A DNA stretch of 64,000 bases from an uncultured Mollicutes bacterium (GCA_900548675.1 URLJ01000001.1:73855-137854); one strand, 5' to 3'. Counted from the first letter of the stretch, positions 47,866 through 61,980 are shown. Made by a program: numbers and translations. Notes: generated by a model from the sequence alone, not told the origin.

Positions 47866-47958
47866 TATGTTGCAAATAAATTAAAAAATTTTTGCATAAA
47901 CTATTGACAAAAGGGAATAATAGTAGTATAATTAATACAACAAAGGGGGAATATAAAA

Positions 47959-48273: not shown

Positions 48274-48322
48274 AATGTATATGTTATAATATAATTAAGT
48301 TAAGAGAAGGGAAGAGATTAAA

Positions 48323-49021: not shown

Positions 49022-49049
49022 GCAACTTTTTCTTTTTGACAAAATAATA

Positions 49050-49116
49050 TTATGTTAACTTATCCCGCCGGCGCGAAAACGAACAAATGTTTGGTGTAAC
49101 CTTCAGGTTTACATAA
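49050..49116. repeat. gene-terminal inverted-repeat element D, enclosing a Cheo-box-like site
   Basis: TTATGTTAAC (49050-49059)...CCGCCGGCG...CGAACAAATGTTTG...GTTTACATAA (49107-49116). Confidence 0.6.
49080..49093. promoter_or_regulatory. LexA Cheo-box-like site CGAACAAATGTTTG
   Basis: GAAC-N4-GTTT matches the Gram-positive SOS box CGAACRNRYGTTCG with one mismatch. Confidence 0.4.
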
Positions 49117-49224
49117 TAACTTACAAATAATTGTCAAAAAGAATTTTAAAAAATTTTGTATATTCTCTTGACTTTTGCATATAATAGTAGTATAATAAAT
49201 ATATAAAGAAAAGGGGATGATAAT

Positions 49225-49362
49225 ATGAATGAAATAATTAATAGGTTAGTTGAAAATGCAATACAAAAATATGGATTTGAACACAAAAAGACAATAGCAA
49301 TTGTAAAAAATGCTGAAAACTTAAAAGAAAAATATGAGTTAGGAATTTTAAAAATTTGTTAA
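49225..49362 (+). CDS. small hypothetical protein (45 aa)
   Basis: RBS AAAGGGGATGA before ATG 49225, behind its own TTGACT-N17-TATAAT promoter at 49167-49196. Not in the ORF track because it is under 60 aa. Confidence 0.3.
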   Translation: MNEIINRLVENAIQKYGFEHKKTIAIVKNAENLKEKYELGILKIC

Positions 49363-49574
49363 AAAACTATTGACAAGATAAACAAAGTATGTTATAATAT
49401 AAGTACAGTAAGAAAAGAAGTCAAGACAAAATAAAAATAAAAAGTTTTAAAAAAGTCTTGACAAACACAATAAAGTATGTTATAATAAATACATAAAGAG
49501 AAGTAAAAAATCTTGAAAATTCTCTGAAAAGATTTATAAAAAAATTAAAATTTGAAAGGATTAGGTGATGTTTT

Positions 49575-49946
49575 ATGGCAAAATTAACAGTAGCAAAAAT
49601 CAATGAAATGGCAAGAGGAGTTGCAATGGAGGAAATAGCAAAAAATGGCTTAGTAAACTTCCTACAAATAGAAGGAACTAAATTTGCAAAAGATTTTGAA
49701 TTTGAAACAGAAGAAGGCAAAATGACAAAAACTGTAAGAATTGATGTAGTTGTTCCAAAATTAGAAGAAGGGGAAAATGCTGAATTTCTAGCAGAAGATT
49801 ACCAATTAAGACTAAAAGAAAAAAAAGAAAATGCTAAAGCAAAAGCAGAAGCAAAGGCTAAAAAAATTGCAAGAGATGAAAAAAGAAGAGCAGAAAAAAA
49901 GGCAAATGAAACAAACCCAGTAATTAAGAGAACTATAAAAGAATAG
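49575..49946 (+). CDS. hypothetical protein, paralog family A (second copy)
   Basis: Shares MxKLTxAK, VRIDVVVPK and AEDY motifs and a K-rich tail with the 46755-47108 product. Confidence 0.45.
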   Translation: MAKLTVAKINEMARGVAMEEIAKNGLVNFLQIEGTKFAKDFEFETEEGKMTKTVRIDVVVPKLEEGENAEFLAEDYQLRLKEKKENAKAKAEAKAKKIARDEKRRAEKKANETNPVIKRTIKE

Positions 49947-49949
49947 TCA

Positions 49950-49978
49950 AAAGGGCAAAATGCCCTTTTGTTTTTTGT
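49950..49978 (+). terminator. intrinsic terminator
   Basis: AAAGGGCAAAATGCCCTTT followed by TGTTTTTTGTTT. Confidence 0.55.
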
Positions 49979-49990
49979 TTGGTAAAGATA

Positions 49991-50035
49991 TTATGTAAAC
50001 CAAACATTTGTTCAGGCCGGCACAAGTTTACATAA
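49991..50035. repeat. gene-terminal inverted-repeat element E, enclosing a Cheo-box-like site
   Basis: TTATGTAAAC (49991-50000)...CAAACATTTGTTCAG...GGCCGGC...GTTTACATAA (50026-50035). Confidence 0.6.
50001..50015. promoter_or_regulatory. LexA Cheo-box-like site (reverse complement CTGAACAAATGTTTG)
   Basis: GAAC-N4-GTTT. Confidence 0.4.
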
Positions 50036-50127
50036 AATTCCAAAAATTTTTTAATAAAATTAGTATAAACTATTGACATTTGCACATAATAGTAGTATAA
50101 TATAAATATAGAAGGGGAGTTGATAAT

Positions 50128-50562
50128 ATGAAAAATAAAAAACTTATGGAGGCTAAAAAGTTAATTAAATCAATAGATAATGATATTCAAATCATTGTAG
50201 AAAGACACAAATATACAAGAGGGTTAACCTGTGAACCAACAGAAAAAAGAATTTATTTAGGTTTTAGGGCTACAAAAATTGAAAACCAAACATTCATAGA
50301 TTTAGTTAATGAATTAGAACCTAATTTCTTCCAGAAGTACAAAGTTAGTTTATGGCTATTAAGTGTATTACACGAAATAGGACACATTCAAACCCACGAT
50401 GAAGAACTTGAAGACGATTACAATTTTTGTGTTGATTTTCTTAATGAGTTGAAATTAAACAATGAAATTACAGAAAAAGAACAAAACGAATATTATGTAA
50501 GGTTAGACTTAGAACAAATGGCAACACAATGGGCAATAGATTATGTAAAGAAGGCATTTTAG
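50128..50562 (+). CDS. putative zinc metallopeptidase (HExxH; ImmA/IrrE- or SprT-like)
   Basis: HEIGH motif inside LLSVLHEIGHIQTHDEE, with a downstream Glu. 144 aa. Confidence 0.4.
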   Translation: MKNKKLMEAKKLIKSIDNDIQIIVERHKYTRGLTCEPTEKRIYLGFRATKIENQTFIDLVNELEPNFFQKYKVSLWLLSVLHEIGHIQTHDEELEDDYNFCVDFLNELKLNNEITEKEQNEYYVRLDLEQMATQWAIDYVKKAF

Positions 50563-50591
50563 CCTTCTTTTTTTATACCATAATTACCATT

Positions 50592-50627
50592 TTATGTAAA
50601 CTTGGCTTGCCGGCGCGGTTTACATAA
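50592..50627. repeat. gene-terminal inverted-repeat element F
   Basis: TTATGTAAAC (50592-50601)...GCCGGCGCG...GTTTACATAA (50618-50627). A degenerate Cheo-like CAAACATTTGTTTG follows at 50649-50662. Confidence 0.55.
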
Positions 50628-50689
50628 CAACTTTACATAATGCCGCACCAAACATTTGTTTGTCAAATTTCAACTCTTTATTGCCGGCA

Positions 50690-50835
50690 CGCTCGCAGCC
50701 TACTGTCAAATTTCTACCACCCTCGCCGCCTCCTAAGGAGCTGCAAAGGAGCTGGGAGCTGCGTTGTCAAATTTTCGCCAGGAGCTGCGTTCAACCTCCC
50801 AGGTTTACATAATATGTTTACAGGAGCTGCAAAGC
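50690..50835 (+). repeat. GC-rich GGAGCTGC repeat island with TGTCAAATTT x3
   Basis: (A/C)AGGAGCTGC occurs 5 times and TGTCAAATTT(C) 3 times. The track ORF 50640-50852 is judged a spurious product of these repeats. Confidence 0.5.
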
Positions 50836-50906
50836 CAACGTTTGACTTTTAGTACAAATTCATGTATAATTATATTATAGAAAAAATAAAGAAAGGGTTG
50901 ATTTAA

Positions 50907-51212
50907 ATGGGTAATAGAGATAGAATAATTAGATGGGACGACGAAAACAATGCACACAGATATTTTGTTAATGGCAGATTAGTAGGATGTGGATATGACT
51001 TTTTAGAAGTATTCGAGAAAGCTGCACCATTCTTACACATTGGCAGAGAAATAGTAACTCGTCAAGTTTGTCTTTGTGATATTGACAGCGACTTATCAGA
51101 TACAAAAACAGGTATGATAGTAGATTTCTTAAACGAAGCTAAAAGATTAACAGAATTTCAAGAAAAAGCATTATACGAATTTGACTTCACATCTTTGTTA
51201 GAATTGATATAA
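50907..51212 (+). CDS. hypothetical protein (101 aa)
   Basis: RBS AAAGGGTTGA. Promoter at 50845-50875. Confidence 0.4.
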   Translation: MGNRDRIIRWDDENNAHRYFVNGRLVGCGYDFLEVFEKAAPFLHIGREIVTRQVCLCDIDSDLSDTKTGMIVDFLNEAKRLTEFQEKALYEFDFTSLLELI

Positions 51213-51219
51213 CGCACAT

Positions 51220-51248
51220 TTGACTTTTAGTTAAAAGTGTTATATAAT
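51220..51248 (+). promoter_or_regulatory. promoter of the tRNA/ncRNA operon (TTGACT-N17-TATAAT)
   Basis: -35 at 51220-51225 and -10 at 51243-51248. Confidence 0.55.
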
Positions 51249-51280
51249 ATTATTATAGAAAATAAATAATATTTTCTTAG

Positions 51281-51612
51281 CGATGAAAACCACCGTATCA
51301 GTGGCTAGTCGCACACAAATCCTTAGGTCAGTAATTAAGCGCAGTCATGATGGGCTTAGTGAAGGATAAGGTTGACTGTTAGTGAACGAGGACTATCAAG
51401 TTATCAGTAGGAAGAAACTGTTCCCAGGTTGTTGGAATCGGGGTGAGAGAACCAACCAGACCGAAACTGAAAGAGGCTCCGCACCTATGCGTTAAATGGC
51501 GATAGCAGAGATTAGTTATCTGCGAGTAAGAGACATATTATTTAATTAGTGCACACTCTCTTGCGTGCGGGGTTTGTATCATTTAGAACTATAGTCGCCC
51601 CGCAATTTATAT
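51281..51612 (+). ncRNA. structured RNA with group-I-intron-like core motifs (R-like GAACGAGGACTATCA, S-like AGAACTATAGTCGCC); no exons recognised
   Basis: P7-like pairing between GACTA (51392-51396) and TAGTC (51592-51596). Many nested hairpins. Lies between the promoter and tRNA-Leu(TAG). No ORF. Confidence 0.3.
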
Positions 51613-51689
51613 GCATTAGTATGCAAACTGGCAAAGCAGCTGGTCTTAGAAACCAGTGTATGAAAGTTCGACTCTTTCCTAATGCACCA
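51613..51689 (+). tRNA. tRNA with anticodon TAG (Leu by codon table) but class-I architecture (5-nt variable loop)
   Basis: Acceptor GCATTAG/CTAATGC, A73, CCA encoded. Anticodon stem CTGGT/ACCAG around loop CTTAGAA. T-arm GAAAG-TTCGACT-CTTTC. Confidence 0.6.
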
Positions 51690-51757
51690 AATTATGGTTT
51701 GCGAGGCACCCATCGGTGAGAGCTGCACATCTCACATGAGAAAACCTCGGTGCATAT

Positions 51758-51844
51758 GCACCTTTGGCGGAATAGGCAGACGCGTGGGACTTAAAATCCC
51801 ATGGACGAGAGTCCGTCCCAGTTCGATTCTGGGAAGGTGCACCA
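51758..51844 (+). tRNA. tRNA-Leu(TAA), class II with long variable arm
   Basis: Acceptor GCACCTT/AAGGTGC. Anticodon stem TGGGA/TCCCA around loop CTTAAAA. Variable arm TGGACGAGAGTCCGT. T-arm CCCAG-TTCGATT-CTGGG. CCA encoded. Confidence 0.7.
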
Positions 51845-52002
51845 GCAGGGCGAACCCGTAACGTCCCTTTGCAAATAGAATATCGGGTGGTGTGGATAAG
51901 CGAAGCTACAATGCTCAATAATAGTAGTTCTTGTTATTTATTTTTTCGTATACCATTTGGGTATACAGAACGCGCGGCGTCGCAAGCGACAGCCGTTTAT
52001 AT

Positions 52003-52089
52003 GGGTCTTTGGGTGAGCTGGCTAAAACCGCCAGACTGTAAATCTGGTCTCTTCGGAGTACCCTGGTTCGAATCCAGGAGGGCCCACCA
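52003..52089 (+). tRNA. tRNA-Tyr(GTA) with long variable arm
   Basis: Anticodon stem CCAGA/TCTGG around loop CTGTAAA. Variable stem CTC-TTCG-GAG. T-arm CCTGG-TTCGAAT-CCAGG. Acceptor GGGTCTT/AGGGCCC. CCA encoded. Confidence 0.65.
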
Positions 52090-52095
52090 TTATAT

Positions 52096-52171
52096 TCGCG
52101 GGTGGTGTAATTGGTAACACGACGGACTTTGACTCCGTAGAGTGTTGGTTCGAGACCAGCCCCGCGAGCCA
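52096..52171 (+). tRNA. tRNA-Gln(TTG)
   Basis: U1-A72 acceptor TCGCGGG/CCCGCGA. D-stem GTGT/ACAC. Anticodon stem ACGGA/TCCGT around loop CTTTGAC. T-arm GTTGG-TTCGAGA-CCAGC. G73 then CCA. Confidence 0.65.
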
Positions 52172-52254
52172 CAGCTACGCAAGTAGCGAAACACACCCCT
52201 TTCTTTTGTAGGTCAGCTGTCTCGTGTAGACCTGACAGCTGGCTAATTTCAAAT

Positions 52255-52283
52255 TTGACTTTTAGTGTGAATTTTGATATAAT
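52255..52283 (+). promoter_or_regulatory. internal promoter TTGACT-N17-TATAAT upstream of tRNA-Val
   Basis: -35 at 52255-52260 and -10 at 52278-52283. Confidence 0.5.
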
Positions 52284-52306
52284 ATTATTATAGTAAAAGT
52301 AAATAT

Positions 52307-52382
52307 AGTCCGTTAGCTCAGCTGGTAGAGCATCGCCCTTACAAGGCGGAGGTCGTTGGTTCGAACCCAACACGGACTACCA
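52307..52382 (+). tRNA. tRNA-Val(TAC)
   Basis: Acceptor AGTCCGT/ACGGACT. D-arm GCTC-AGCTGGTA-GAGC. Anticodon loop CTTACAA. T-arm GTTGG-TTCGAAC-CCAAC. CCA encoded. Confidence 0.7.
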
Positions 52383-52550
52383 TTCGAGGATAACTAACTG
52401 GTCTCACCTCTTTAAAAATGAGAACTCTGCTGCGGAGCGCGTACCATCGCAGGGACAAATAAATTAGGCGGAGCAATGCCCTAAATGCTCTGAACAAATA
52501 TGGGCACTTATATAGCGGGGTGGAGCAGTTGGCAGCTCGCCAGGCTCATA

Positions 52551-53111
52551 GAAAATTGTGGCTCCATGTAGAAATACATAGATGAACTGTGGATGAATTC
52601 AGAGGAGGCTAAGTCTTTTGGAAAAGAAAATTATAGGTTATGATGATGTATATACAATAGATACTAATGGTATTGTATATAGAAATGGTAAACCAATGTC
52701 CCCAAGGGATAATGGTATAGGTTATCAGCAAATAGGATTGCGTTTAAATCGCAGACGATACAATGTTTATATTCACAGATTGGTTTGGGAAACTTTTAAA
52801 GGAGATATACCAAATGGATATGAGATTAACCATATAGACCATAATAAACATAATAATAACTTAGATAATTTAGAGTTAGTATCTCACTCTACCAATTTAA
52901 AAAAATCAGTAGAAAGATATGGATACTATGGTTCTATGAATAGACCAAAAGATATGCGAACTTTGAGCCAAGCCGAAGATACATCTTCGGAAGGTGCAGA
53001 GACTACTGGAGAGGTATAGTCCTCTTAATAACCAGTTTAAGTATCCACTACCTAAGTCGTAAGATATGGTAAAGACATAGTCCACTCTATAATGAAAATT
53101 ATAGGTAAGTA
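52551..53111 (+). mobile_element. group-I-like intron carrying an HNH homing endonuclease ORF
   Basis: R-like TTCAGAGGAGGCTAAGTC (52598-52615) and S-like AAAGACATAGTCC (53071-53083) could pair to form P7 (GGCTA/TAGTC). The ORF lies between them, and its RBS GAGGAGG (52602-52608) is embedded in the R element. Confidence 0.45.
52618..53019 (+). CDS. intron-encoded HNH homing endonuclease (TTG start)
   Basis: Layout typical of phage HNH homing endonucleases (HNH_3/NUMOD-like): conserved YIHRLVW, then EINHIDHNKHNNNLDNLELVSHSTN. RBS 9 nt upstream of the TTG start. Confidence 0.55.
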   Translation: MEKKIIGYDDVYTIDTNGIVYRNGKPMSPRDNGIGYQQIGLRLNRRRYNVYIHRLVWETFKGDIPNGYEINHIDHNKHNNNLDNLELVSHSTNLKKSVERYGYYGSMNRPKDMRTLSQAEDTSSEGAETTGEV

Positions 53112-53177
53112 AACCCGAAGGTCGTAGGTTCAAATCCTACTCCCGCAACCAATAGAAGATCATAGAGGTTGGTAAAA

Positions 53178-53459
53178 ATGGCAATTATCTATTATATAGA
53201 CAACAAAGCAAACTGGAAAGGATATGTTGGTTGTTCTAAAACTCCACTATCTCATAGATGGGGGAAACATAAATATTTATTAAGGCATAACCTACATTCT
53301 AACAAGGAACTGCAAGATGACTGGAATAAATATGGAGAGCACAGCTTTAGTGCTTTTGTTATAGAAACCTGCCCAGATAGTAAGATGCTAGAGAGAGAAA
53401 AGTATCATATAAACAGATTACAAACAAATGTCAGAGGGGTTGGGTACAACCAGAAGTAA
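53178..53459 (+). CDS. GIY-YIG endonuclease, catalytic-domain-only (93 aa)
   Basis: IYYIDNKANWKGYVGCS...R...KH...E...N is the classic GIY-YIG motif set. Starts 27 nt after the tRNA-Met 3' exon. No DNA-binding extension. Confidence 0.5.
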   Translation: MAIIYYIDNKANWKGYVGCSKTPLSHRWGKHKYLLRHNLHSNKELQDDWNKYGEHSFSAFVIETCPDSKMLEREKYHINRLQTNVRGVGYNQK

Positions 53460-53748
53460 CTGATTTTTAAGAGGGATAGTTTGGTGGGCACCTCACCATT
53501 AAGAGCTGGTGCTGAATTGGACAACTATTATTTGCTACCAATTATTTGAAAAAAGTTTTAAAAAAGACTTGATTCAAGGTAGCAACATAGTTTATAATAT
53601 AAATGTAAAATGAAAAAGGAAAAATAAAAAAGACTTCTAATCCTTTACCATTTAGCGTAATAGCTCTGGTTTATTAGAAGCAAAAAATATTTATTTTAGA
53701 AAGGGTATCCAATTGGCTGCTATAAGGTTGGATATTAGGGTGAAAATT

Positions 53749-54000
53749 ATGGCTAAAGAAAGATTTAATGTAATGGGAAAAGAACTTACTGCAAATGAAA
53801 AAGCAGTATATGAATTCGTAAGGGACAACGGAGTAGTTGATTACAAGATGGTTGCTGAAAAACTAAATATCAGTCCAAAGAGTGCATCAAGCACACTAGC
53901 AAGACTAGAAGCAACTCATTCACTATTAAAGAAAAATGCTCCAAAAGTTGCTACAACTTATGAAGTAGAAGCTGAAGCTGACGAAGTTGAAGCTGAATAG
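53749..54000 (+). CDS. small winged-helix-like protein, family W paralog 1
   Basis: MAKERFNVMGKELTANEKAVYEFV...SPKSASSTLARLEATHSLLKK aligns with four other copies. Acidic C-terminus. Confidence 0.4.
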   Translation: MAKERFNVMGKELTANEKAVYEFVRDNGVVDYKMVAEKLNISPKSASSTLARLEATHSLLKKNAPKVATTYEVEAEADEVEAE

Positions 54001-54002
54001 TA

Positions 54003-54040
54003 ATAGGAGTATCGGCTTAGCCGAGCTCCTATAATATATT
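54003..54040 (+). terminator. hairpin terminator (weak T-tract)
   Basis: ATAGGAG-TATCGGCTTAGCCGA-GCTCCTAT. Confidence 0.35.
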
Positions 54041-54366
54041 AAGGTTTTTATTCTTCACAATATAAAAGGGGTTGCTTGTGGTTGCCCCAACCAAAAACAT
54101 AAGTGGTGGTAGGTTTGCTCGTTAGGGGCTGCGAGGGTAAATAAAGAACAGCAGAACTGGTTGCATAATACGAGTGGCAAGGCAAGAGCCTTGTCTTTTT
54201 TTTATTTTTTAATTTTAGACTTGACAAACGGTACTTGCATATGATAAAAAAACTTTTTTATTTTTTTTTGCAAAAAAGACTTGACGAGATCCCTTAAAAT
54301 GAATTATAATTATTATAATGGGAGTGATATATATAAAAAAAAAGAAAAATTTACGGAGATGATATT

Positions 54367-54858
54367 ATGTGGAAATCGTATGATGATATATATGAGATAA
54401 GCACTGGTGGTAAGATAAGAAATAAGAAAAGTCCTGATAAGATATTAAAGACATATGTTAATAATTGTGGATATGAGAAATTCAAGGGCCACAATGTACA
54501 TCAGTATGTACATAGAATGGTAGCGGAGACATTCATACCTAATCCATCTGGTAAAGAACAAGTGAACCATAAAAATGGGGATAAGCTGGATAACAGGGCA
54601 GAAAATCTTGAATGGGTAACTCGTAGTGAGAACGTATCTCACGCTTATAAGTGCCTAGGAAGAAAACGTAGTTACTGTGGTTCAAAAGGACATAATGCTA
54701 AAAAGGTATATCAGTATTCATTAGAAGGTCAGCTCCTTACTACCTATAATTCGGTGGGTGCAGCTGCAGAAGCTGTCGGAGGTGCAAGTCCTAACATCAG
54801 CAGATGTTGCAATGGGCATATTAAAACATACAAAAACTTTGTATGGAAAAATGAATAA
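54367..54858 (+). CDS. HNH homing endonuclease (free-standing)
   Basis: YVHRMVAETF and NHKNGDKLDNRAENLEWVTRSEN follow the same pattern as the intron-encoded HNH. Own promoter TTGACG...TATAAT at about 54287-54320. Confidence 0.5.
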   Translation: MWKSYDDIYEISTGGKIRNKKSPDKILKTYVNNCGYEKFKGHNVHQYVHRMVAETFIPNPSGKEQVNHKNGDKLDNRAENLEWVTRSENVSHAYKCLGRKRSYCGSKGHNAKKVYQYSLEGQLLTTYNSVGAAAEAVGGASPNISRCCNGHIKTYKNFVWKNE

Positions 54859-54913
54859 AAATACTTGACTTGTCCTTCCTTAAAGATTTATGATATAATG
54901 GGAGAGTATTATT

Positions 54914-54927
54914 AAAAAAAAAAAAAA
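54914..54927 (+). repeat. A14 homopolymer at the 5' end of an ORF-less transcript
   Basis: 14 consecutive A immediately after TATAATGGGAGAG. Confidence 0.7.
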
Positions 54928-55345
54928 TAGATCCCAGCTCCCTTAGCCTGATCCAGCTCCAAATCCCAGCTCCCACCTAAGGGGTTAGCTATGAGGGCGC
55001 AGCTCCAGATTGCTACCAGGGGATAGGTGGCAATGAATTATTTCCTGGGAAATATTTGCTAGCAAAAAATGGGTAGACTCCCCCCTCCCCTTCTTCTGGC
55101 AGTTAGATCTCATTACACGGCTCGGGTCTAACTATCGCCCACATAATTAATTTTTCTTTTCCTCCTTTCTTTATAATATAATTATACATCTTTCAGCTCC
55201 CAATAGTCAAGTATTTTTTGAAAAATTTTAGCAGCTCCCATTGCCCCCCACCTTCCAGCTCCCATAGCGCAGCTCCGGTAGGTAAAGCGCAGCTCCCACC
55301 CAGCTCCCAATAGGTGGCAATGCCAGCTCCCTGCTACCAAATTAT
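54928..55345 (+). repeat. CCAGCTCC(C) / ATAGGTGGCAA repeat island (the minus strand reads GGGAGCTGG)
   Basis: At least 10 copies of CAGCTCC and 3 copies of ATAGGTGGCAA in two blocks (54928-55010 and 55193-55345). Promoter-driven with no credible ORF; the track ORF 55182-55433 (-) is judged a spurious product of these repeats. Confidence 0.5.
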
Positions 55346-55492
55346 AGGTGGCAACACCTGATCTGATCCACCTTGACCGGATCTCTTGCCCTTGGGATAA
55401 TTTTTGCAATAAATTTTTAAAAAAGACTTGCATTTTACTCCATAATTTGATATAATTATATTGTAAATAAAAAAGAAAGGAAGAGTGGTAAA

Positions 55493-55672
55493 ATGAAACA
55501 AAAACTAATTAAAAAATTGCACGATCTAATGCTACAAATAATTACTTGTAATGATGCTGAACTTGACAAGATAGGAATTGAACTTGCCGAAATAGAAAAA
55601 CAATTAATTAATTGGCAAGAAAAAAATCTCAAAAAAAATAAAAAAATACTTGACTTTAAGGACAAGATGTAG
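55493..55672 (+). CDS. small hypothetical protein (59 aa)
   Basis: RBS AAAGGAAGAGTGG before ATG 55493. Its 3' end overlaps the next promoter. Confidence 0.35.
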   Translation: MKQKLIKKLHDLMLQIITCNDAELDKIGIELAEIEKQLINWQEKNLKKNKKILDFKDKM

Positions 55673-55740
55673 TATAATTAATATATCAAATGAAGAAATA
55701 AAAGAAAAGTAAAAAAAGTTAAAAAAATTAAAAAAAACAC

Positions 55741-55769
55741 TTGACTTTTAAATCTGAATTTGATATAAT
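55741..55769 (+). promoter_or_regulatory. consensus promoter TTGACT-N17-TATAAT
   Basis: -35 at 55741-55746 and -10 at 55764-55769. Confidence 0.55.
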
Positions 55770-55833
55770 ATATATGTAAATAAAAAAAGAAAGGGCATTA
55801 ACAAATTAGTCGGTTAATGTAATGGTGATTAAA

Positions 55834-56079
55834 ATGGCTAAAACAAAAGAATTATTTAATGTTAGAGGAGTAAACTTAACTGCTCACGAAAAAAATGTTT
55901 ACGACAAAGTAAAGGAATTAGGCACTGTTGACTACAACCAAGTAGCAACTGCTTGTAATGTATCTACTAAGTCTGCTATTGCAACATTAGCAAGATTAGA
56001 AAAAACTCACGGTTTATTAAGAAAAAATGAACCAGTAAAAGTAACTACTTATGAAGTTGCTGATGTAGAGGGCGAATAG
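55834..56079 (+). CDS. small winged-helix-like protein, family W paralog 2
   Basis: MAKTKELFNVRGVNLTAHEKNVYDKV...STKSAIATLARLEKTHGLLRKNEPVKVTTYEV. Confidence 0.45.
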   Translation: MAKTKELFNVRGVNLTAHEKNVYDKVKELGTVDYNQVATACNVSTKSAIATLARLEKTHGLLRKNEPVKVTTYEVADVEGE

Positions 56080-56092
56080 TCCTCTTTTTTTA
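56063..56092 (+). terminator. intrinsic terminator
   Basis: AGAGG-gcgaatagt-CCTCT followed by T7. Confidence 0.5.
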
Positions 56093-56104
56093 TTTACTGT
56101 AAAG

Positions 56105-56118
56105 CGAACAAATGTTTG
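56105..56118. promoter_or_regulatory. LexA Cheo-box-like site CGAACAAATGTTTG
   Basis: GAAC-N4-GTTT, 8 nt upstream of a TTGACA. Confidence 0.4.
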
Positions 56119-56207
56119 TCAAATACTTGACAAAAAATTTTTTTATTTTTTTTATTAAAAATACTTGACTTTGTGGGGGAAAGTGTGATATAATTAAAGG
56201 GGAAGTA

Positions 56208-56227
56208 TTTTTTTTTTTTTTTTTTTT
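56208..56227 (+). repeat. T20 homopolymer
   Basis: 20 consecutive T directly downstream of promoter 56170-56198, at the 5' end of an ORF-less GC-rich transcript. Confidence 0.7.
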
Positions 56228-56271
56228 AGTAGCTTCGCAGCTGCCACAGCAGCAGCTCAGCTCCCAGCTCC

Positions 56272-56291
56272 GACACACCCGGGTGCGTTGT
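56272..56291 (+). repeat. conserved 21-nt motif copy 1 (GACACACCCGGGTGCGTTGT)
   Basis: Member of the 7-copy family with consensus TGATACGCCCGGNTGAGTTGTA. Confidence 0.5.
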
Positions 56292-56352
56292 TGCCCCCCG
56301 TTAGGGGGTAAGGGGCTAGGTGGTTGCCCCTGGGTTGGGTTAACCCAAGATC

Positions 56353-56374
56353 TGATACGCCCGGTTGAGTTGTA
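56353..56374 (+). repeat. conserved 21-nt motif copy 2 (TGATACGCCCGGTTGAGTTGTA), flanked by AGATCT and preceded by the GGGTTAACCC palindrome
   Basis: Direct sequence match. Confidence 0.55.
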
Positions 56375-56403
56375 AGATCTTTTTGATCCGGGAGAGGATC
56401 TCA

Positions 56404-56425
56404 CGATACGCCCGGATGAGTTGTC
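56404..56425 (+). repeat. conserved 21-nt motif copy 3 (CGATACGCCCGGATGAGTTGTC)
   Basis: Direct sequence match. Confidence 0.55.
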
Positions 56426-56535
56426 TTTCATTATTATAATATAAAAAAACTTGAAAAACTTTTATAAAAATGCTTGACTTCTTTTTCTTTATTTGGTATA
56501 ATTAAGATGTAATAAAGAAAGGAAAGGTGTTAAAA

Positions 56536-56727
56536 ATGACTGAAACACAAGAATTGATTTTAAATAAGTTAGGGGAATTATGTAGAATTTATCCACAACA
56601 AAGATTAGGACAAATAATCTATAATTATATTTTAAGGTATTGTCCTAATAACGATTGTTTCTTTATAGAAGATACTAAACTTTTAGAATTATTAGAAACA
56701 ATTACAAAAGAAATTGAAGAAAAGTAA
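56536..56727 (+). CDS. hypothetical small protein (63 aa)
   Basis: RBS AGGAAAGGTG before ATG 56536. Promoter at 56473-56503. Confidence 0.4.
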   Translation: MTETQELILNKLGELCRIYPQQRLGQIIYNYILRYCPNNDCFFIEDTKLLELLETITKEIEEK

Positions 56728-56797
56728 AAAAAATACTTGACTTTAATTTCTACCTATGATATAATTAAGATGTAATAAAGAAAGGAAAGTGATAAAA

Positions 56798-56920
56798 ATG
56801 GCAATGACACCTGCAAAAAGACATCAAATAAGAGCAAAGCAAGAGGCAATGCAAAAAGCAAGAAAAGAGGAAAGACTTGGACTTGCTAAAAAAACAGCAA
56901 AGAAAAAGGGAAGAAAATAA
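56798..56920 (+). CDS. small basic protein (40 aa, Lys/Arg-rich)
   Basis: RBS AAAGGAAAGTG before ATG. Own promoter. Followed by the hairpin GGGAAGAAA-ataa-TTTCTTCCC. Confidence 0.35.
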   Translation: MAMTPAKRHQIRAKQEAMQKARKEERLGLAKKTAKKKGRK

Positions 56921-56964
56921 TTTCTTCCCCCCTCAAAAAAAATTAAAAAAAGTTAAAAAAGGTA

Positions 56965-56993
56965 TTGACATTTGACCTAATAAATGTTATAAT
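56965..56993 (+). promoter_or_regulatory. consensus promoter TTGACA-N17-TATAAT
   Basis: -35 at 56965-56970 and -10 at 56988-56993. Confidence 0.55.
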
Positions 56994-57045
56994 TAATATG
57001 TAAATGAGAGATAGCCACTCTCAAAAAGAAAGGAAAGTGATAAAA

Positions 57046-57291
57046 ATGGCAAAAACTAAAGAAACTTTTAATGTAAGAGGTGTAGAACTAACTGCACACG
57101 AAAAAAATGTTTATGAAAAGGTTGTAGAACTTGGAAAAGTTGACTATAATCAAATTGCTACAAGTTGTAATGTAAGTCCTAAAAGTGCGATAGCAACACT
57201 TGCTAGACTTGAAAAAACACACGGACTTCTAAAGAAAAATGAACCTGTAAAGGTTACAACTTACGAAATCGCCGAAGATATAGAGGACTAG
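57046..57291 (+). CDS. small winged-helix-like protein, family W paralog 3
   Basis: MAKTKETFNVRGVELTAHEKNVYEKV...SPKSAIATLARLEKTHGLLKKNEPVKVTTYEI. Confidence 0.45.
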   Translation: MAKTKETFNVRGVELTAHEKNVYEKVVELGKVDYNQIATSCNVSPKSAIATLARLEKTHGLLKKNEPVKVTTYEIAEDIED

Positions 57292-57308
57292 AAACCTCTA
57301 TATTTTTT
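57270..57308 (+). terminator. intrinsic terminator
   Basis: TATAGAGG-actagaaa-CCTCTATA followed by T7. Confidence 0.5.
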
Positions 57309-57320
57309 TATGTTCTAATA

Positions 57321-57334
57321 CGAACAAATGTTCG
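57321..57334. promoter_or_regulatory. LexA Cheo-box, perfect match CGAACAAATGTTCG
   Basis: Exact fit to the Gram-positive SOS box consensus CGAAC-N4-GTTCG. Confidence 0.5.
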
Positions 57335-57465
57335 CTTTTGGCCCCCCCAAAAAAAATTAAAAAAATTACAAAAAACTATTGACTTTCACTTGCATTTTTG
57401 CTATAATTATGTTAGAGGTGGAGGAGAGCCCCTTATAAAAAAGATCTTCCTTTAGATCATCTGAT

Positions 57466-57487
57466 GATACGCCCGGATCAGTTGTAT
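57466..57487 (+). repeat. conserved 21-nt motif copy 4 (TGATACGCCCGGATCAGTTGTA)
   Basis: Sits in an ORF-less unit behind promoter 57383-57412, preceded by the AGATCT...AGATC inverted repeat. Confidence 0.55.
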
Positions 57488-57682
57488 GGGTTGGGATGCT
57501 CCCAAAAAAATTAAAAAAAATATAAAAAAAGTATTGACTTTTGATTTGGTCTATGATATACTTAATATGTAATCAAGGAAAGACACCAAAGAAAAAAAAT
57601 AAAAAAAATTATAAAAAAGTGTTGACACTGATTAGAAAGTATGTTATAATAAATATGTAATTAAGAAAGGAAAGTGAATTAA

Positions 57683-58447
57683 ATGGAAACAAAAGGTTAT
57701 CCACAAAAACAAAAAAATATCAATGTTAGAAAGGTTAAAAATGTTTTAGGAATTGATACTGAAACTATAATGGACTTACAAAATGCAATGCCATTTGATA
57801 TCGGTTATGTTGTTTACAATAACAAAGAAGATAAAATCGAAAAACAAGGAACTTATCTTGTTAGAAAGTTTGTAAATAATAAATACATTATTTTATCAAG
57901 TTGGAGTGCTAACAAGTACGAAAGATATTATAAACCACTTTTAAACACTAAAACAAAAGATGTTAAAGTTGAAAGTGTAGAAAAAATAGCAAAAGAATTT
58001 GCTAAAATAATTAAAAAATATGATATCAAATATATGTTTGCACACAATGGACAATTTGATTATCAAGCACTTAAAAGATTATTTGAAGATGTTGGAGTTA
58101 AAAACCCTTTTGAAAATCTTGATATAATTGATACAATGATGTTAAGTTATAAAACTATTACAACTACAAAAGAATATGAAAACTTTTGTAAAGAAAATAA
58201 AAACATCACAAAATTACAAGATAAAAAAGTTGTTAGTCGTTTTATTACTGATAGTAATAGAGTAAGACAAACTGCCGAAAGTATCTTCGCATTTATAGAT
58301 AAAAATATTGATTTTGAAGAAAATCACACAGGACTTGAAGATATAAAAATTGAATTAGAAATCTTTAAGTATTGCAAGGGTAAAAAAGCAATTTTCCCTA
58401 TCAATACACAACCAACTTGGCGTGATTTTGCAAAATTAGAAAGTTAA
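57683..58447 (+). CDS. DEDDh 3'-5' exonuclease (DnaQ-like), paralog 2
   Basis: Exo I GIDTETI, Exo II HNGQFDY, Exo III HTGLEDI. Confidence 0.5.
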   Translation: METKGYPQKQKNINVRKVKNVLGIDTETIMDLQNAMPFDIGYVVYNNKEDKIEKQGTYLVRKFVNNKYIILSSWSANKYERYYKPLLNTKTKDVKVESVEKIAKEFAKIIKKYDIKYMFAHNGQFDYQALKRLFEDVGVKNPFENLDIIDTMMLSYKTITTTKEYENFCKENKNITKLQDKKVVSRFITDSNRVRQTAESIFAFIDKNIDFEENHTGLEDIKIELEIFKYCKGKKAIFPINTQPTWRDFAKLES

Positions 58448-58585
58448 AAAAACTTTCTTTTTTTTGTAAAAAAGTATTGACTTTATACCAAAACAATGCT
58501 ATAATTATAATGGGGGTGGATGATGATGATATATATAACAACGCCGCCTGGCGTGTCATAAACGTCCCCCTTGGGTTAACCCAAA

Positions 58586-58607
58586 TGATACACCTGGATG
58601 AGTTGTA
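58586..58607 (+). repeat. conserved 21-nt motif copy 5 (TGATACACCTGGATGAGTTGTA), preceded by the TTGGGTTAACCCAA palindrome
   Basis: Sits in an ORF-less unit behind promoter 58477-58505, whose transcript starts ATAATGGGGGTGG. Confidence 0.55.
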
Positions 58608-58745
58608 GACAAAAGCCTAGAATAAAAAAGTTAAAAAAGTTTTAAAAAACTATTGACAATGACCTAATACTATGCTATAATATATATGTAAGATAAAGAA
58701 AGATATATCTTACAAATGATTATTTAAGAAAGGAAAGTGATACAA

Positions 58746-58976
58746 ATGAATAATCAAAAAACTAAAAAAAGAGTATTAAAGAAAGGTGTTGAAAAGGTAT
58801 TCAGTACAATTGTTGCTATTTGGTTTTTTTGGATAATGACTACAATTGACACAATAGACAACCCATTTAATGAAATTAAAAGTTATTTAATCATTACTGG
58901 AATATTAACAATACTTGCCTTATTTAGTTTCATAATGCTAATGAAATACTCTAATTTATTTGAAGATGCCGACTAG
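58746..58976 (+). CDS. small membrane protein (two TM helices)
   Basis: RBS AAAGGAAAGTG. Hydrophobic segments FFWIMTTI and ITGILTILALFSFIML. Confidence 0.4.
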   Translation: MNNQKTKKRVLKKGVEKVFSTIVAIWFFWIMTTIDTIDNPFNEIKSYLIITGILTILALFSFIMLMKYSNLFEDAD

Positions 58977-59119
58977 TGCATCTTTTTTTATTATTGCATC
59001 AGGTATAAAAAAAATAAAAAAAAATTGCAAAAAAGTATTGACTTTTGTTTCACAAAATGATATAATTATAATGGGAGAGAATAATAATAATATAAAAAAA
59101 GATCTAGGGGTGGATCTGA

Positions 59120-59141
59120 TGACACGCGTGGGTGAGTTGTA
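59120..59141 (+). repeat. conserved 21-nt motif copy 6 (TGACACGCGTGGGTGAGTTGTA)
   Basis: ORF-less unit behind promoter 59036-59064. Preceded by AGATCTAGGGGTGGATCT. Confidence 0.55.
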
Positions 59142-59238
59142 AGAAAGTTAAAAAAAATTAAAAAACTTTTAAAAAAGTATTGACTTTAATCTAATAAAGT
59201 GGTATACTTAATATGTAATCAAGAAAGGAATGAAAAAA

Positions 59239-59601
59239 ATGAATTATAGAAACTTTAAAATTGAAATGGAAGAAAAGGACTTAAAGAAAACAAACTTAAT
59301 CTATAAATGGTTAATAACTATGAAAGATGGAAAAGTTGCTACTTATGTTGGAATATCAACAAGACCACTTGATGAAAGAACAAAAGAACACATAAGAGAT
59401 AAAAGAACATATTTTGATAAGTTCTTAACTGAAAATGAAAACAATATCAAAAGTATTAAAATTGAGGTTGTAAAAGAGTTAAAAAGAAACTTTAAAGATA
59501 TGAAAACACAACTTGAAAAAAGAGAAACTAAACTTATAATAAAAGATAAGTTAGAAAATGCTTTTAATCTTAATAGTAAAATTGATAAAAGATTTGCATA
59601 A
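59239..59601 (+). CDS. GIY-YIG-like endonuclease (divergent)
   Basis: LIYKWLITMKDGKVATYVGIS...R...EH fits the GIY...YIG...R...H/E spacing loosely. Confidence 0.3.
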   Translation: MNYRNFKIEMEEKDLKKTNLIYKWLITMKDGKVATYVGISTRPLDERTKEHIRDKRTYFDKFLTENENNIKSIKIEVVKELKRNFKDMKTQLEKRETKLIIKDKLENAFNLNSKIDKRFA

Positions 59602-59780
59602 AAAGTATTGACTTTTAAAAAGATATTTGATATAATAATATTGTCAATAGGAAATGAACTTAATAAAAAAAATTAAAAAAGTTAAAAAAACTATTGACAA
59701 TATCAATTATATTTGATATAATAAATATGTAAATAAGAAAAGAACTTATTTACAAGTAGCAAAGAAAGGAAAGTGATATT

Positions 59781-60026
59781 ATGGCTACAAAAAAAGAATT
59801 ATTTAATGTAAAGGGTGTTGAAATGACAGCACACGAAAAAATGGTTTTTGATAAGGTTGTTGAACTTGCAAGACCAGTAAGTTATAAGGAAATTGCAAAA
59901 GAGTGCAACATTAGTGAAAAAAGTGCTTGTGCTACACTTGCAAGATTAAATGCTACAAAGGGAGTTTTGAAGAAAAACGAACCTATCAAAGTTACAACTT
60001 ATGAAATAAATGAAGATATCGATTAA
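59781..60026 (+). CDS. small winged-helix-like protein, family W paralog 4
   Basis: MATKKELFNVKGVEMTAHEKMVFDKV...SEKSACATLARLNATKGVLKKNEPIKVTTYEI. Confidence 0.45.
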   Translation: MATKKELFNVKGVEMTAHEKMVFDKVVELARPVSYKEIAKECNISEKSACATLARLNATKGVLKKNEPIKVTTYEINEDID

Positions 60027-60040
60027 GATATCTTTTTTTT
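60008..60040 (+). terminator. intrinsic terminator
   Basis: AAGATATC-gattaa-GATATCTT followed by T9. Confidence 0.5.
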
Positions 60041-60251
60041 TAGTGCAAAAAAAAATTAAAAAAATTTGCAAAAAAGTATTGACTTTATACTTAAAGAGTG
60101 ATATAATTATAATGGGGGAGAATAATAATATATAAAAAAAACGATCTACTTTTGGATCACAAAAAAATGAAAAAACTTTAAAAAAAATATTGACTTTATA
60201 CCATTTATTTGGTATAATATATATGTAAGATAAAGAAAGGAATGATTAAAA

Positions 60252-60464
60252 ATGAAAAAGAAAAGAGTGTTAAAAAGTTGGGTTAAGGAAACATTATTAT
60301 TTATTGCTTGTGGTATTGCTTTATTTGGTTGTTTCAAGTTATTACAATTACAAGACCAACACGAATACAATAAAGCAATTGAAAGATGTGGAAGTGTTGA
60401 AAACCTAAACACACACTACACACAACAAGGCGACAAATACTACACTTGCAAGGTTGAAAAATAA
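60252..60464 (+). CDS. small secreted/membrane protein with N-terminal signal-like segment and a conserved Cys pair
   Basis: MKKKRVLKSWVKETLLFIACGIALFGC... resembles a signal peptide; a lipoprotein reading is uncertain. Confidence 0.35.
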   Translation: MKKKRVLKSWVKETLLFIACGIALFGCFKLLQLQDQHEYNKAIERCGSVENLNTHYTQQGDKYYTCKVEK

Positions 60465-60571
60465 CCTTGTAAGTGATAGAAAAAAAACTTAAAAAAGTTT
60501 TAAAAAAGTGTTGACTTTATACCAATAGTATGATATACTATATATGTAATCAAGGAAAGGAAAGTGATAAA

Positions 60572-60841
60572 ATGATTACTAGAAACCATAAAAACATTAT
60601 GAAATATGCAAACATAATGACAAACATTAAAGATATTGCAAAAGCAACTAAACAAACTGAAAGTCAAGTTGAAAGTGCAATAATCACACTTGCAAGAAAA
60701 GACTTAATGACAAAGTCAAAAGCAAAAGAACTTTTGAAAGACAAGAAGTCAGTTAAGTTCATAGACTTGCCATTTGGAAGTAGACTTGCAAAACCACTTC
60801 CAGTATCAACTGAAAAAGTAAAGACTATTTATTGCAAATAG
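60572..60841 (+). CDS. winged-helix-like protein, distant family W member (paralog 5)
   Basis: ATKQTESQVESAIITLARKDL parallels the (S/T)xKSAIATLARLEK core. Own promoter at 60512-60540. Confidence 0.35.
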   Translation: MITRNHKNIMKYANIMTNIKDIAKATKQTESQVESAIITLARKDLMTKSKAKELLKDKKSVKFIDLPFGSRLAKPLPVSTEKVKTIYCK

Positions 60842-60874
60842 TCTTTACAAAAAAAATGAAAGGAATTGATTAAA

Positions 60875-61378
60875 ATGAGAAAAGCCGATAACCTACCTAT
60901 TAAATGGGTGTTAGATATGGACGACACACTAGCACACTTTCACGAACAAAAAAACGCACTTGAAAGATTTGCTACTGAAAAAAACTTCTTTAATATTTTG
61001 AAACCTAGTAAAATGACAAAGTTTATCAAACAACTTGTTGAACGCAACGAACTTGACGCAAAAGATATTTTTATTGTTAGTGCTTCACCTAATGAACAAG
61101 CCGACAAAGATAAACTACAATGGATTGAAAGACACTTGCCTGAAATACCAAAAAGTAACATTATGTTTACAAGACTTGGAGAAAATAAAGCCGAATTGTT
61201 TATCAATAAATACCACTTATCAAAAGATGACTTCAAGTATTTTATGCTAATTGATGACTACACAAAAAACCTTATTGAGTGGAAAAACTTTGGTGGAATT
61301 GCTAAAAAGTACATCAATGAATACAACAACACAACAAAGAACTATCTTAACTACAACATCAGTACAATAGTATTATAA
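60875..61378 (+). CDS. HAD-superfamily 5'(3')-deoxyribonucleotidase-like protein (paralog 2)
   Basis: DMDDTLAHF (HAD motif I). Collinear with the 47314-47790 product (ISASPN, WIEKYL/WIERHL, GENKAE, LLDDYTKNL/LIDDYTKNL). Confidence 0.5.
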   Translation: MRKADNLPIKWVLDMDDTLAHFHEQKNALERFATEKNFFNILKPSKMTKFIKQLVERNELDAKDIFIVSASPNEQADKDKLQWIERHLPEIPKSNIMFTRLGENKAELFINKYHLSKDDFKYFMLIDDYTKNLIEWKNFGGIAKKYINEYNNTTKNYLNYNISTIVL

Positions 61379-61391
61379 ATGATAAATCAAA

Positions 61392-61417
61392 AGACTAATA
61401 ACAAAGTCTTTTTTATT
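61392..61417 (+). terminator. intrinsic terminator
   Basis: AAGACT-aataaca-AAGTCTT followed by T6. Confidence 0.5.
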
Positions 61418-61428
61418 ATAATAACTAT

Positions 61429-61500
61429 AACACAAACAACACAAACACAAACACAAAGTCAAACACAAACAACACAAAGTCAAAGACAAAGTCAAACCAA
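61429..61500 (+). repeat. CA-rich microsatellite-like tract (ACACAAAC / ACAAAGTCAA units)
   Basis: Generates the low-complexity TQTQSQ track ORF 61379-61579, judged non-coding. Confidence 0.5.
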
Positions 61501-61733
61501 AATACTTAAAACACTATCTGTACCACCTAGCATAGCACGATACGAACAAAACGGAACAAAAAGACCAATTATATTATAAAGATAAAACACGCCTAAAAAC
61601 GCCCTTAAAATGCGTCTAGTGGTGTATTAAAAAAATAGGGTTGGATCGATAGGAAATAAAAAAAGACTTTTAGAAATTAAAAAGTCTTTTGCTACAAACT
61701 TATGTTTGCTATTTCTTGCAAGTTGCCAAACAC

Positions 61734-61747
61734 CGAACAAGTGTTTG
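61734..61747. promoter_or_regulatory. LexA Cheo-box-like site CGAACAAGTGTTTG
   Basis: GAAC-N4-GTTT. Confidence 0.4.
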
Positions 61748-61790
61748 AGTCTTAGCATTCTAATCCCGAGAGTGCCAACATAAACACGAA

Positions 61791-61805
61791 CGAACAAGCG
61801 TTCAG
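61791..61805. promoter_or_regulatory. LexA Cheo-box-like site CGAACAAGCGTTCAG
   Basis: GAAC-N4-GTTC with both half-sites perfect. Confidence 0.45.
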
Positions 61806-61829
61806 CTGAAGGGGGGATATGTTTAGTAA

Positions 61830-61850
61830 TGATACGCCTGGGTGCGTTGT
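61830..61850 (+). repeat. conserved 21-nt motif copy 7 (TGATACGCCTGGGTGCGTTGT)
   Basis: Direct sequence match. Confidence 0.5.
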
Positions 61851-61865
61851 TATGGGTGCATGCGT

Positions 61866-61980
61866 CCTATACGAAATCACATATTCAATTTTCTGTACCT
61901 ATACGAAATCACTTACTCAATTTCTGCTAGTTCACTCACTCAATTTCTCATTCCCGAAATCACTTACCCAGTTTCTACTT
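61866..61980. repeat. four iteron-like direct repeats (~30-bp period; core ATCACTTACTCAATTTCT)
   Basis: CCTATACGAAATCACATATTCAATTTTCTG, CCTATACGAAATCACTTACTCAATTTCTG, TTCACTCACTCAATTTCTC, CGAAATCACTTACCCAGTTTCTAC. Confidence 0.6.

Follow-up and report, generated by a model that had tools for sequence, protein, structure and literature searches.

The stretch analyzed here (the window) comprises 64,000 nt of an assembly deposited as an uncultured Mollicutes bacterium (GCA_900548675.1, URLJ01000001.1:73855-137854), and our subject is a set of palindromic boxes in it that resemble the operators of LexA, the repressor of the SOS response. The window derives from a large SPbeta/E3-type siphophage: its terminase is of the kind that phage records label YonF, and its relatives have a YonG_N domain. 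A minus-strand structural operon occupies 2-44.6 kb and ends in an endolysin with Amidase_2 and SH3_3 domains; a sigma-like protein is encoded as well. From 44.65 kb onward lies a plus-strand early region with ~25 near-consensus sigma-A-type promoters, many of them with an extended -10 element and phased A-tracts, together with intrinsic terminators, five tRNAs, homing-endonuclease genes and many small paralogous cassettes. The clade is one of ~100-145 kb SPbeta/E3-like siphophages that probably infect low-GC (guanine-plus-cytosine) gut Clostridia, and the host is probably a Clostridium-like Firmicute, judging from the endolysin relatives (Faecalibacterium, Ruminococcus and Acutalibacter phages), the label of the metagenome-assembled genome (MAG), the promoter type and the 30% GC content. 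One scan of genome contigs had a single return, a phage contig with an 84% identical terminase that was binned in an 'uncultured Clostridium sp.' MAG, and Megablast against the isolate phage collection gave only two ~40-nt matches in the tRNA region, to Roseobacter phages.

The early region carries eight non-coding boxes. A preliminary description of the sequence had listed seven CGAAC-N4-GTTCG-like sites, all of which were recovered with unchanged coordinates; the eighth, at 61695, was absent from that list. The features are given below, without strand, and the source of the scoring matrix is given with the enrichment analysis.

49080..49093, no strand: LexA-type box CGAACAAATGTTTG, 15.8 bits (C. 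difficile matrix)
50001..50014, no strand: LexA-type box CAAACATTTGTTCA (reverse complement TGAACAAATGTTTG), 11.9 bits
50649..50662, no strand: LexA-type box CAAACATTTGTTTG, both half-sites AAAC, 13.0 bits
56105..56118, no strand: LexA-type box CGAACAAATGTTTG, 16.1 bits
57321..57334, no strand: perfect LexA-type box CGAACAAATGTTCG, 18.1 bits, exceeding all training operators
61695..61708, no strand: box CAAACTTATGTTTG, first of the terminal cluster, 13.5 bits
61734..61747, no strand: LexA-type box CGAACAAGTGTTTG of the promoter-less terminal cluster, 13.3 bits
61791..61804, no strand: LexA-type box CGAACAAGCGTTCA (GAAC-AAGC-GTTC)
48850..48863, no strand: box-like match AGAACGAATGTTTG inside the exonuclease-like open reading frame (ORF) 48323-49021, 14.3 bits

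The match within the ORF is probably incidental; the paralogous position, at 58276, is not box-like.

To quantify the enrichment, we counted sites in the early region, taken as positions 44650-61975 of the plus strand, and compared the consensus counts with 300 dinucleotide-preserving shuffles. Five sites had at most one mismatch to CGAAC-N4-GTTCG, against 0.04 expected, a count reached by 0/300 shuffles, and 13 had at most two mismatches, against 1.55 expected. Over the remaining 44.6 kb upstream of the early region, one site with at most one mismatch was found (0.15 expected). We also scored the window with a matrix built from 11 operator sequences, representing ten targets that bind C. difficile LexA with high affinity in surface plasmon resonance (SPR) (PMC4234289, Table 2, Figure 3B). 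With this matrix, the early region gave seven hits at ≥12 bits, where 0.58 would be expected and no single one of 200 shuffles had more than four, and four hits at ≥14 bits, against 0.12 expected, while no significant excess was seen in the window outside the early region. The preliminary description had proposed such a matrix comparison with shuffled sequence, and the excess it looked for is present (7 vs 0.58). The window boxes score 11.4-18.1 bits, compared with 16.2 bits for the C. difficile lexA and recA operators.

Short degenerate motifs are frequent at 30% GC, and the 1.55 two-mismatch matches expected could suggest that the boxes are chance matches in AT-rich DNA. Against this stand the five near-perfect sites with 0.04 expected, which not one of the 300 shuffles equals, and the conservation of the boxes among relatives. 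Natural phage DNA of 30% GC, moreover, is poor in such sites (~1 per 140 kb): in Geobacillus virus E3, a natural control of ~30% GC whose terminase (45% identity) makes it the closest isolate, a single site was counted over 141 kb. A second control, 80 unrelated phage loci totalling 1.28 Mb, contained nine. The shuffles, the C. difficile matrix and the E3 and unrelated-phage controls thus rule out chance, to which we assign a negligible probability; the box sites and their local enrichment are real. An unbiased scan for exact inverted 5-mers was swamped by A/T runs and was uninformative.

Related uncultured contigs from IMG/VR, ENA and Logan all carry boxes, at 2-14 per 12-20 kb of early region and up to 14 boxes in 12 kb in the contig L002. 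These relatives fall into two lineages. The segment 30.6-49.9 kb of the window is 70-77% identical to lineage B (L016), and 53472-64000 is 95-98% identical to lineage A (L009, L104), whose sigma-like, YonG, terminase, portal and capsid proteins are 26-34% identical to those of the window. Boxes are present in both lineages, and early modules have been exchanged between them. Among close relatives, substitutions within boxes are confined to positions 2, 13, 14 or the spacer. The counterpart of box 61734 in L012 reads CGAACAACTGTTCG, and that of box 61791 in close relatives reads CGAACAAGCGTTCG.

We then combined the sites of the window with those of related loci, 60 unique sites in all, with the GAAC/GTTY core fixed by the selection rule. 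Positions outside the rule were biased as well (A6 in 54/60, T9 in 47/60), mismatches fell nearly all at position 13 (C in 31, T in 29), the tolerated GTTY position, and the pooled spacer fits the R6/Y9, A/T-rich-centre preference (CGAACRNRYGTTYG) of LexA operators; no conserved extension into the flanks was found among the pooled sites. The derived motif is the 14-bp palindrome CGAACA-NN-TGTTYG. The Gram-positive LexA consensus is CGAACRNRYGTTYC, with the B. subtilis version CGAACATATGTTCG, and at the level of sequence the derived motif equals it. The 13-mer GAACAAATGTTTG is common to boxes 49080 and 56105 and to the C. difficile lexA (AGGAACAAATGTTTGC) and recA (GAGAACAAATGTTTGT) operators. 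Clostridial LexA recognizes the Cheo-box motif, and in SPR its slowest dissociation was from the C. difficile lexA, recA and uvrB operators (PMC4234289). When we scanned for the consensus motifs of 16 Firmicute regulators, a strong excess was seen only for LexA and for the controlling inverted repeat of chaperone expression (CIRCE).

The half-sites themselves indicate how the motif is read. Among 67 unique sites fitting C[GA]AAC-N4-GTT[CT]G, 36 combine a GAAC and an AAAC half, 20 are perfect and 11 have two AAAC halves, and the site orientations are equally frequent on the transcribed strand. Since the half-site differences are uncompensated and there is no strand bias, we conclude that two half-sites are read independently, as by a dimeric protein, rather than by base pairing; the same two observations rule out reading the palindromes as RNA hairpins. 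Together, these results identify the boxes as predicted 14-bp dimer-binding operators of the Gram-positive LexA type.

The boxes had been described as lying at cassette boundaries, in terminator-promoter gaps or inside inverted repeats rather than over -10/-35 elements, and this placement is borne out, as no strong -35 or -10 is overlapped. With transcription starts estimated at 7 nt past the -10 hexamer (uncertainty 1-2 nt), box centres in the window are found either 86-222 nt upstream of the nearest strong promoter's start or in a promoter-less spacer, and none of the window boxes overlaps or directly adjoins the -35, -10 or start of a regulated promoter. In one recurring context, a box stands ~10-14 nt past a terminator and just upstream of the next promoter's A-tract, its centre at ~-65 to -90 from the estimated start. 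Thus, box 56105 lies 13 nt past the terminator of the winged-helix gene 55834-56079, centred ~-89 from the promoter 56165-56194, whose product is a GC-rich non-coding transcript, and box 57321 lies 11 nt past the terminator of the winged-helix gene 57046-57291, centred ~-86 from the promoter 57379-57407, whose product is a short non-coding transcript. Box centres upstream of the next promoter's A-tract range from ~-65 to -120. A further group is found in or abutting TTATGTAAAC...GTTTACATAA inverted repeats at the cassette boundaries of the 45-51 kb module. Box 49080 is flanked by the arms TTATGTTAAC (49050-49059) and GTTTACATAA (49107-49116), and its centre precedes the estimated start of promoter 49168-49196 by ~116 nt; box 50001 abuts the arm TTATGTAAAC (49991-50000), with the arm GTTTACATAA at 50026-50035, and precedes, by ~100 nt, the promoter start of a gene with an HExxH motif; and box 50649 has an inverted-repeat element just before it and a GC-rich non-coding stretch after it. 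In L002, the TTATGTAAAC/GTTTACATAA spacers are filled by arrays of 3-6 boxes. In relatives only, boxes are also seen at +20 to +25 downstream of TATAATTATAATGGGAG promoters. Finally, boxes 61695, 61734 and 61791 form a cluster without a promoter where the early region ends, and all lineage-A relatives keep it; box 61695 sits directly 3' of the last early terminator (61664-61692), and box 61791 is followed by GGGGGG-N-GTTTAGTAAT and then by a copy of a 20-nt motif (61819-61850).

When ten terminator-box-promoter regions were aligned, the boxes were as conserved as the -35/-10 hexamers, while the flanks and the box-promoter distance varied. Selection keeps the boxes as modular spacer parts between early gene cassettes. 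Because they lie mostly outside core promoters, classic promoter occlusion by the window boxes is unlikely. A weak minus-strand promoter-like match overlaps box 50649. Antisense promoters over boxes 50649 and 56105, with TTGACA fused to the box, were considered and rejected, as the adjoining sequence differs in relatives and is not conserved. The ORF 61819-61998, 3' of the terminal cluster, was likewise rejected as a LexA-controlled gene, its start codon being missing in L011, L014 and L017.

The inverted repeat TTATGT(A/T)AAC ... GTTTACATAA occurs at each cassette boundary between 45.1 and 50.8 kb, around a GC-rich palindrome (GCCGGC, GGCGCGCC), for example at 46105-46140, 47139-47200, 47822-47870, 49050-49116, 49991-50035 and 50593-50627. 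Its arms number 17 copies in the window, with many more in L001-L006 and L016, and the repeats are possibly attC-like or hairpin boundary elements. An initial transcribed sequence common to many early promoters, TATAAT-N3-4-ATATGTAA-N-AAG, resembles the TTATGTAAAC arms (examples at 55741-55790, 56965-57010, 57622-57665, 58653-58700 and 59694-59740) and may be a common operator or leader element.

Within the terminal cluster, between boxes 61734 and 61791, sits a second operator-like element:

61752..61778, no strand: CIRCE-like inverted repeat TTAGCATTC-N9-GAGTGCCAA, 16/18 to the HrcA operator consensus

At up to three mismatches, the CIRCE pattern gave this one match against 0.02 expected. 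Boxes in L013 and L014 also have CIRCE-like repeats next to them, with N9 spacers that differ. Such elements adjoin boxes in three diverged relatives, and none occurred in ~1.4 Mb of control loci. Two host-type stress operators side by side favor host repressors over a phage protein that shares only the specificity of LexA.

These findings bear on a question raised in the preliminary description, namely whether host LexA is recruited or a phage repressor has a LexA-like half-site. That the boxes are LexA-type operators stands, on the strength of the motif, the match to C. difficile operators, the conservation and the enrichment; between host LexA and a phage protein, computation does not decide. 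From the observed motif, enrichment, conservation, placement and match to validated operators, we infer the binder and its consequence as follows: we consider it somewhat better than even, at a probability of roughly 0.55, that host LexA binds the boxes with functional consequence. Host LexA is favored because boxes occur in two lineages and the winged-helix family introduced above was detected in only one, and because a CIRCE-like host-type operator sits among the boxes. Neither the window nor the related loci examined encode a LexA homologue (tblastn with LexA was not significant). Several points weigh against host LexA. Geobacillus LexA is expected to share the Gram-positive LexA motif, and E3 is without box enrichment, which makes the enrichment lineage-specific, as might equally be seen with a phage protein confined to this lineage. 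Two boxes of the window stand directly behind genes of the lineage-specific winged-helix family, whose recognition helix is almost invariant, and the exchange of early modules between lineages makes a shared phage-encoded binder conceivable. The positions of the boxes are atypical for LexA repression, and the consequences that we propose below, a roadblock and a sink, are speculation.

The true ligand might instead be a DNA-binding protein encoded by the phage, either of the winged-helix family or another early protein, for which the boxes would be stoperator-like or shut-off sites; we regard this as possible, though rather unlikely. The candidates in the window are as follows.

57046..57291, + strand: winged-helix protein, candidate phage binder, one of four paralogs of 81-83 aa
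53749-54000, 55834-56079 and 59781-60026: the other winged-helix paralogs

The family is as clade-specific as the enrichment that E3 lacks, with 79 proteins in a large protein database, all of 45-117 aa, and its recognition helix (K46, S47, T51, A53, R54, L55) is nearly invariant among paralogs. Two of the four window paralogs have a box right after them, and boxes directly past winged-helix gene terminators recur in L013, L014, L017 and L018. A precedent exists in GIL01, which has a DNA-binding truncated LexA homologue. The winged-helix paralogs might also act as uncleavable LexA substitutes on the same boxes, in phage and host DNA. However, the winged-helix proteins have no specific relation to LexA. 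By-eye alignment was suggestive of homology to the LexA DNA-binding domain, but Pfam gave generic winged helix-turn-helix families only, a PDB profile search matched MarR weakly (E = 0.006), and Foldseek with a model of pLDDT (predicted local distance difference test) 80 ranked Lrp, MarR and MntR on top and T. maritima LexA 21st (E = 0.21); together with tblastn, these searches show a generic winged helix, and the homology was rejected. In a profile scan of the viral collection, which was pattern-based so that divergent members may escape it, the family appeared only in lineage-A contigs, and lineage-B contigs of 118 kb and 144 kb have boxes and no detectable family member. A phage-specific operator, moreover, need not copy the host operator at all 12 informative positions, and the CIRCE-like element is left unexplained by a phage binder. 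It is also improbable, though conceivable, that the boxes serve no regulator and are structural or recombination modules at cassette boundaries, their LexA likeness inherited by duplication and their palindromes promoting early-cassette shuffling in the manner of T4-type promoter-stem-loop cassettes or attC-like hairpins. The embedding of boxes in composite spacers with TTATGTAAAC/GTTTACATAA arms and GC-rich palindromes would agree with this, as would the mosaic early region with its many paralogous cassettes and homing-endonuclease genes, and a duplicated unit of gene, terminator and box (repeats D4/D8) can account for some of the positional conservation. Yet it is the sequence and not the pairing that is selected, most sites having uncompensated half-site differences; the informative positions and tolerated variants are exactly those of LexA operators; and the several unrelated contexts, including +20 to +25 past promoters in relatives, fit an independent protein-binding module.

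If host LexA is the binder, its dimers would occupy the boxes once phage DNA enters the cell. Bound LexA would then act as a boundary roadblock, stopping read-through of the preceding terminator and damping the next A-tract promoter's use of upstream DNA until LexA is removed. Relief could come from LexA cleavage, which would be expected if the early exonuclease-like and nucleotidase-like proteins attack host DNA, or from replicating phage genomes that out-titrate LexA. The many high-affinity boxes would also draw LexA off host operators and so couple early transcription to the host SOS state, and the adjacent CIRCE-like element would do likewise for HrcA. Titration gains some support, speculatively, from the promoter-less arrays and the CIRCE-like partner. 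A stronger version, in which LexA-box arrays and the CIRCE-like site are operator decoys that replicate with the genome, titrate stress repressors and, with no damage to the DNA, induce the SOS and chaperone regulons to the benefit of the phage, seems to us unlikely. Should host LexA bind, the boxes would represent a new way for a phage to read, or by titration to manipulate, the stress state of its host, and would offer a simple sequence marker by which uncultured gut phages could be assigned to hosts.

Among the boxes lies a gene that the preliminary description had likened to ImmA/IrrE-type proteases:

50128..50562, + strand: 144-aa protein with a HEIGH motif

LHEIGH is invariant in seven homologues of this ORF. 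Nevertheless, the suggestion is not supported. Peptidase_M78 in Pfam was not matched up to E = 5 in the seven members, nor was there any other significant Pfam or PHROG match; the best folds for the model, which is of low confidence (pLDDT 64), were selecase (E = 0.07) and IrrE/PprI (E = 0.4-0.7; template modeling score ≤0.34), none of them significant; and no helix-turn-helix match, as expected of an ImmR-type repressor, was found in the neighboring ORFs 49575-49946, 50640-50852 and 50907-51212. ImmA/IrrE membership, which finds no support in Pfam, fold search or neighborhood, was rejected. The protein may be a small zincin, and a link of it to the boxes is unsupported.

The nearest relatives switch abruptly at 53472, from L016 on the left (1-53.4 kb, 70-77% identity) to L009 and L104 on the right (53.5-64 kb, 95-98% identity). 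The contigs L009 and L104 continue rightward straight into another structural operon (26-34% amino-acid identity); the switch reflects either natural mosaicism or an assembly chimera. The breakpoint adjoins the ORF 53169-53459 (GIY-YIG-like by eye), between the ORFs 52618-53019 and 54367-54858 (HNH-like by eye). Three paralog pairs were noted: exonuclease-like proteins (48323-49021 and 57683-58447, the second marginally matching RNase_T), NT5C-type 5'-nucleotidases (47305-47790 and 60866-61378) and ~120-aa proteins without an assigned family (46749-47108 and 49575-49946). The exonuclease-like and nucleotidase pairs have one copy in each mosaic half. Among the window ORFs tested, there was no integrase, repressor or antirepressor, and no lysogeny module was found in the window.

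Other elements of the early region were also recorded. The 20-nt motif TGAYACRCSYGGRTGMGTTGT, always on the plus strand, has a 16-nt core starting at 56275, 56357, 56408, 57469, 58590, 59124 and 61834. It stands at the 3' end of GC-rich non-coding transcripts from the strong promoters 56165, 57379, 58477 and 59038, is conserved in lineage-A relatives and can flank LexA-type boxes (L017, 9479-9573). As a known RNA it was rejected, since Rfam gave no match and inspection by eye showed no covarying stem; it may serve as a signal for processing or termination, or as a phage RNA polymerase promoter. Around the terminal box cluster, low-complexity repeats of the ACAAACACAAAC type precede it (61430-61500) and three to four iteron-like direct repeats of ~30 nt (CTATACGAAATCAC..TCAATTTCT) follow it (61866-61975); this could be an origin-like or packaging-related region. 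GC-rich non-coding stretches at 50700-50800, 54930-55340 and 56230-56270 are dense in CAGCTCC/GGAGCTG repeats, of which GGAGCTG resembles ribosome-binding sites, and one stretch has a strong minus-strand promoter (55210-55181); they are possible non-coding RNAs. Another ~350 nt of GC-rich non-coding DNA (51255-51610), between the promoter 51220-51248 and the tRNA cluster, had no Rfam match and may be a structured RNA. An initiator-type tRNA (52516-53150) that ARAGORN missed is split in its anticodon loop by a ~570-nt insert, its 5' half ending ...GGAGCAGTTGGCAGCTCGCCAGGCTCAT and its 3' half being AAACCCGAAGGTCGTAGGTTCAAATCCTACTCCCGCAACCA. The insert matches the group I intron model below the gathering score (RF00028, 40.8 bits, E = 1.5e-7, 52853-53104) and overlaps the HNH-like ORF 52618-53019. 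The divergent late/early control region (44700-45340) is full of TTTGTCAAAA/GTCAGAAAG/GGTCAAAAGG repeats and TGTAATGTAAATG tandem repeats. With one mismatch to the Spo0A consensus, a pattern is present seven times in the early region, against 2.1 expected.

Several known systems invite comparison. In phage T5, the first-injected region contains boxes for a host protein (DnaA) among repeats, and T4-type phages have promoter-stem-loop cassettes. The early region of the window is likewise dense in promoters and made of small cassettes bounded by recurring regulatory modules; it differs from T5 in the host protein and the phage group, and nothing seen here points to an injection stop. In architecture, the nearest analogue is found in the stoperators of mycobacteriophage L5 and cluster A, which are many operator copies in short intergenic spacers off promoters, thought to stop read-through transcription; they are asymmetric and orientation-dependent and are bound by the phage's own repressor. 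The window boxes are similarly many, in spacers and off promoters, but, unlike stoperators, they are palindromic, have no orientation bias and match a host operator. With the Firmicute SOS (Cheo) boxes, as represented by C. difficile lexA, recA and uvrB, they share the same 14-bp palindrome and the same tolerated GTTT variant (PMC4234289). The chromosomal operators of C. difficile stand in the upstream regions of the genes they control, 30-91 nt before the lexA, recA, ruvC and uvrB coding sequences (PMC4234289), whereas the phage boxes are post-terminator, far upstream of promoters or in promoter-less arrays.

CTX-phi and coliphage 186 are among the phages with LexA sites. LexA-controlled switches of Gram-positive phages include the GIL01 dinBoxes with gp7 and gp6 (PMC4551915, PMC6182141) and the LexA sites of SPbeta yorB and phi106 aimX (bioRxiv 10.1101/2021.09.20.460909). 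These precedents show that phages, SPbeta-like ones included, use host LexA directly and that a phage-encoded truncated LexA homologue exists. In the window, no gp7-like or gp6-like homologue was found, and with no box over a strong promoter, a LexA-governed lysis/lysogeny switch of the GIL01, phi106 or coliphage 186 type is not seen. GIL01 and phi106 have one to three boxes at a key promoter region (tandem within P3, a set in P1, one in the aimX locus), compared with eight boxes, mostly off promoters, in the window. Until now, LexA boxes in phages were known as single switches that sit over the key promoters of a temperate phage; what is new here is an arrangement of many operators of predicted top affinity, present in two lineages, at cassette boundaries and in promoter-less arrays, and once joined by a CIRCE-like operator.

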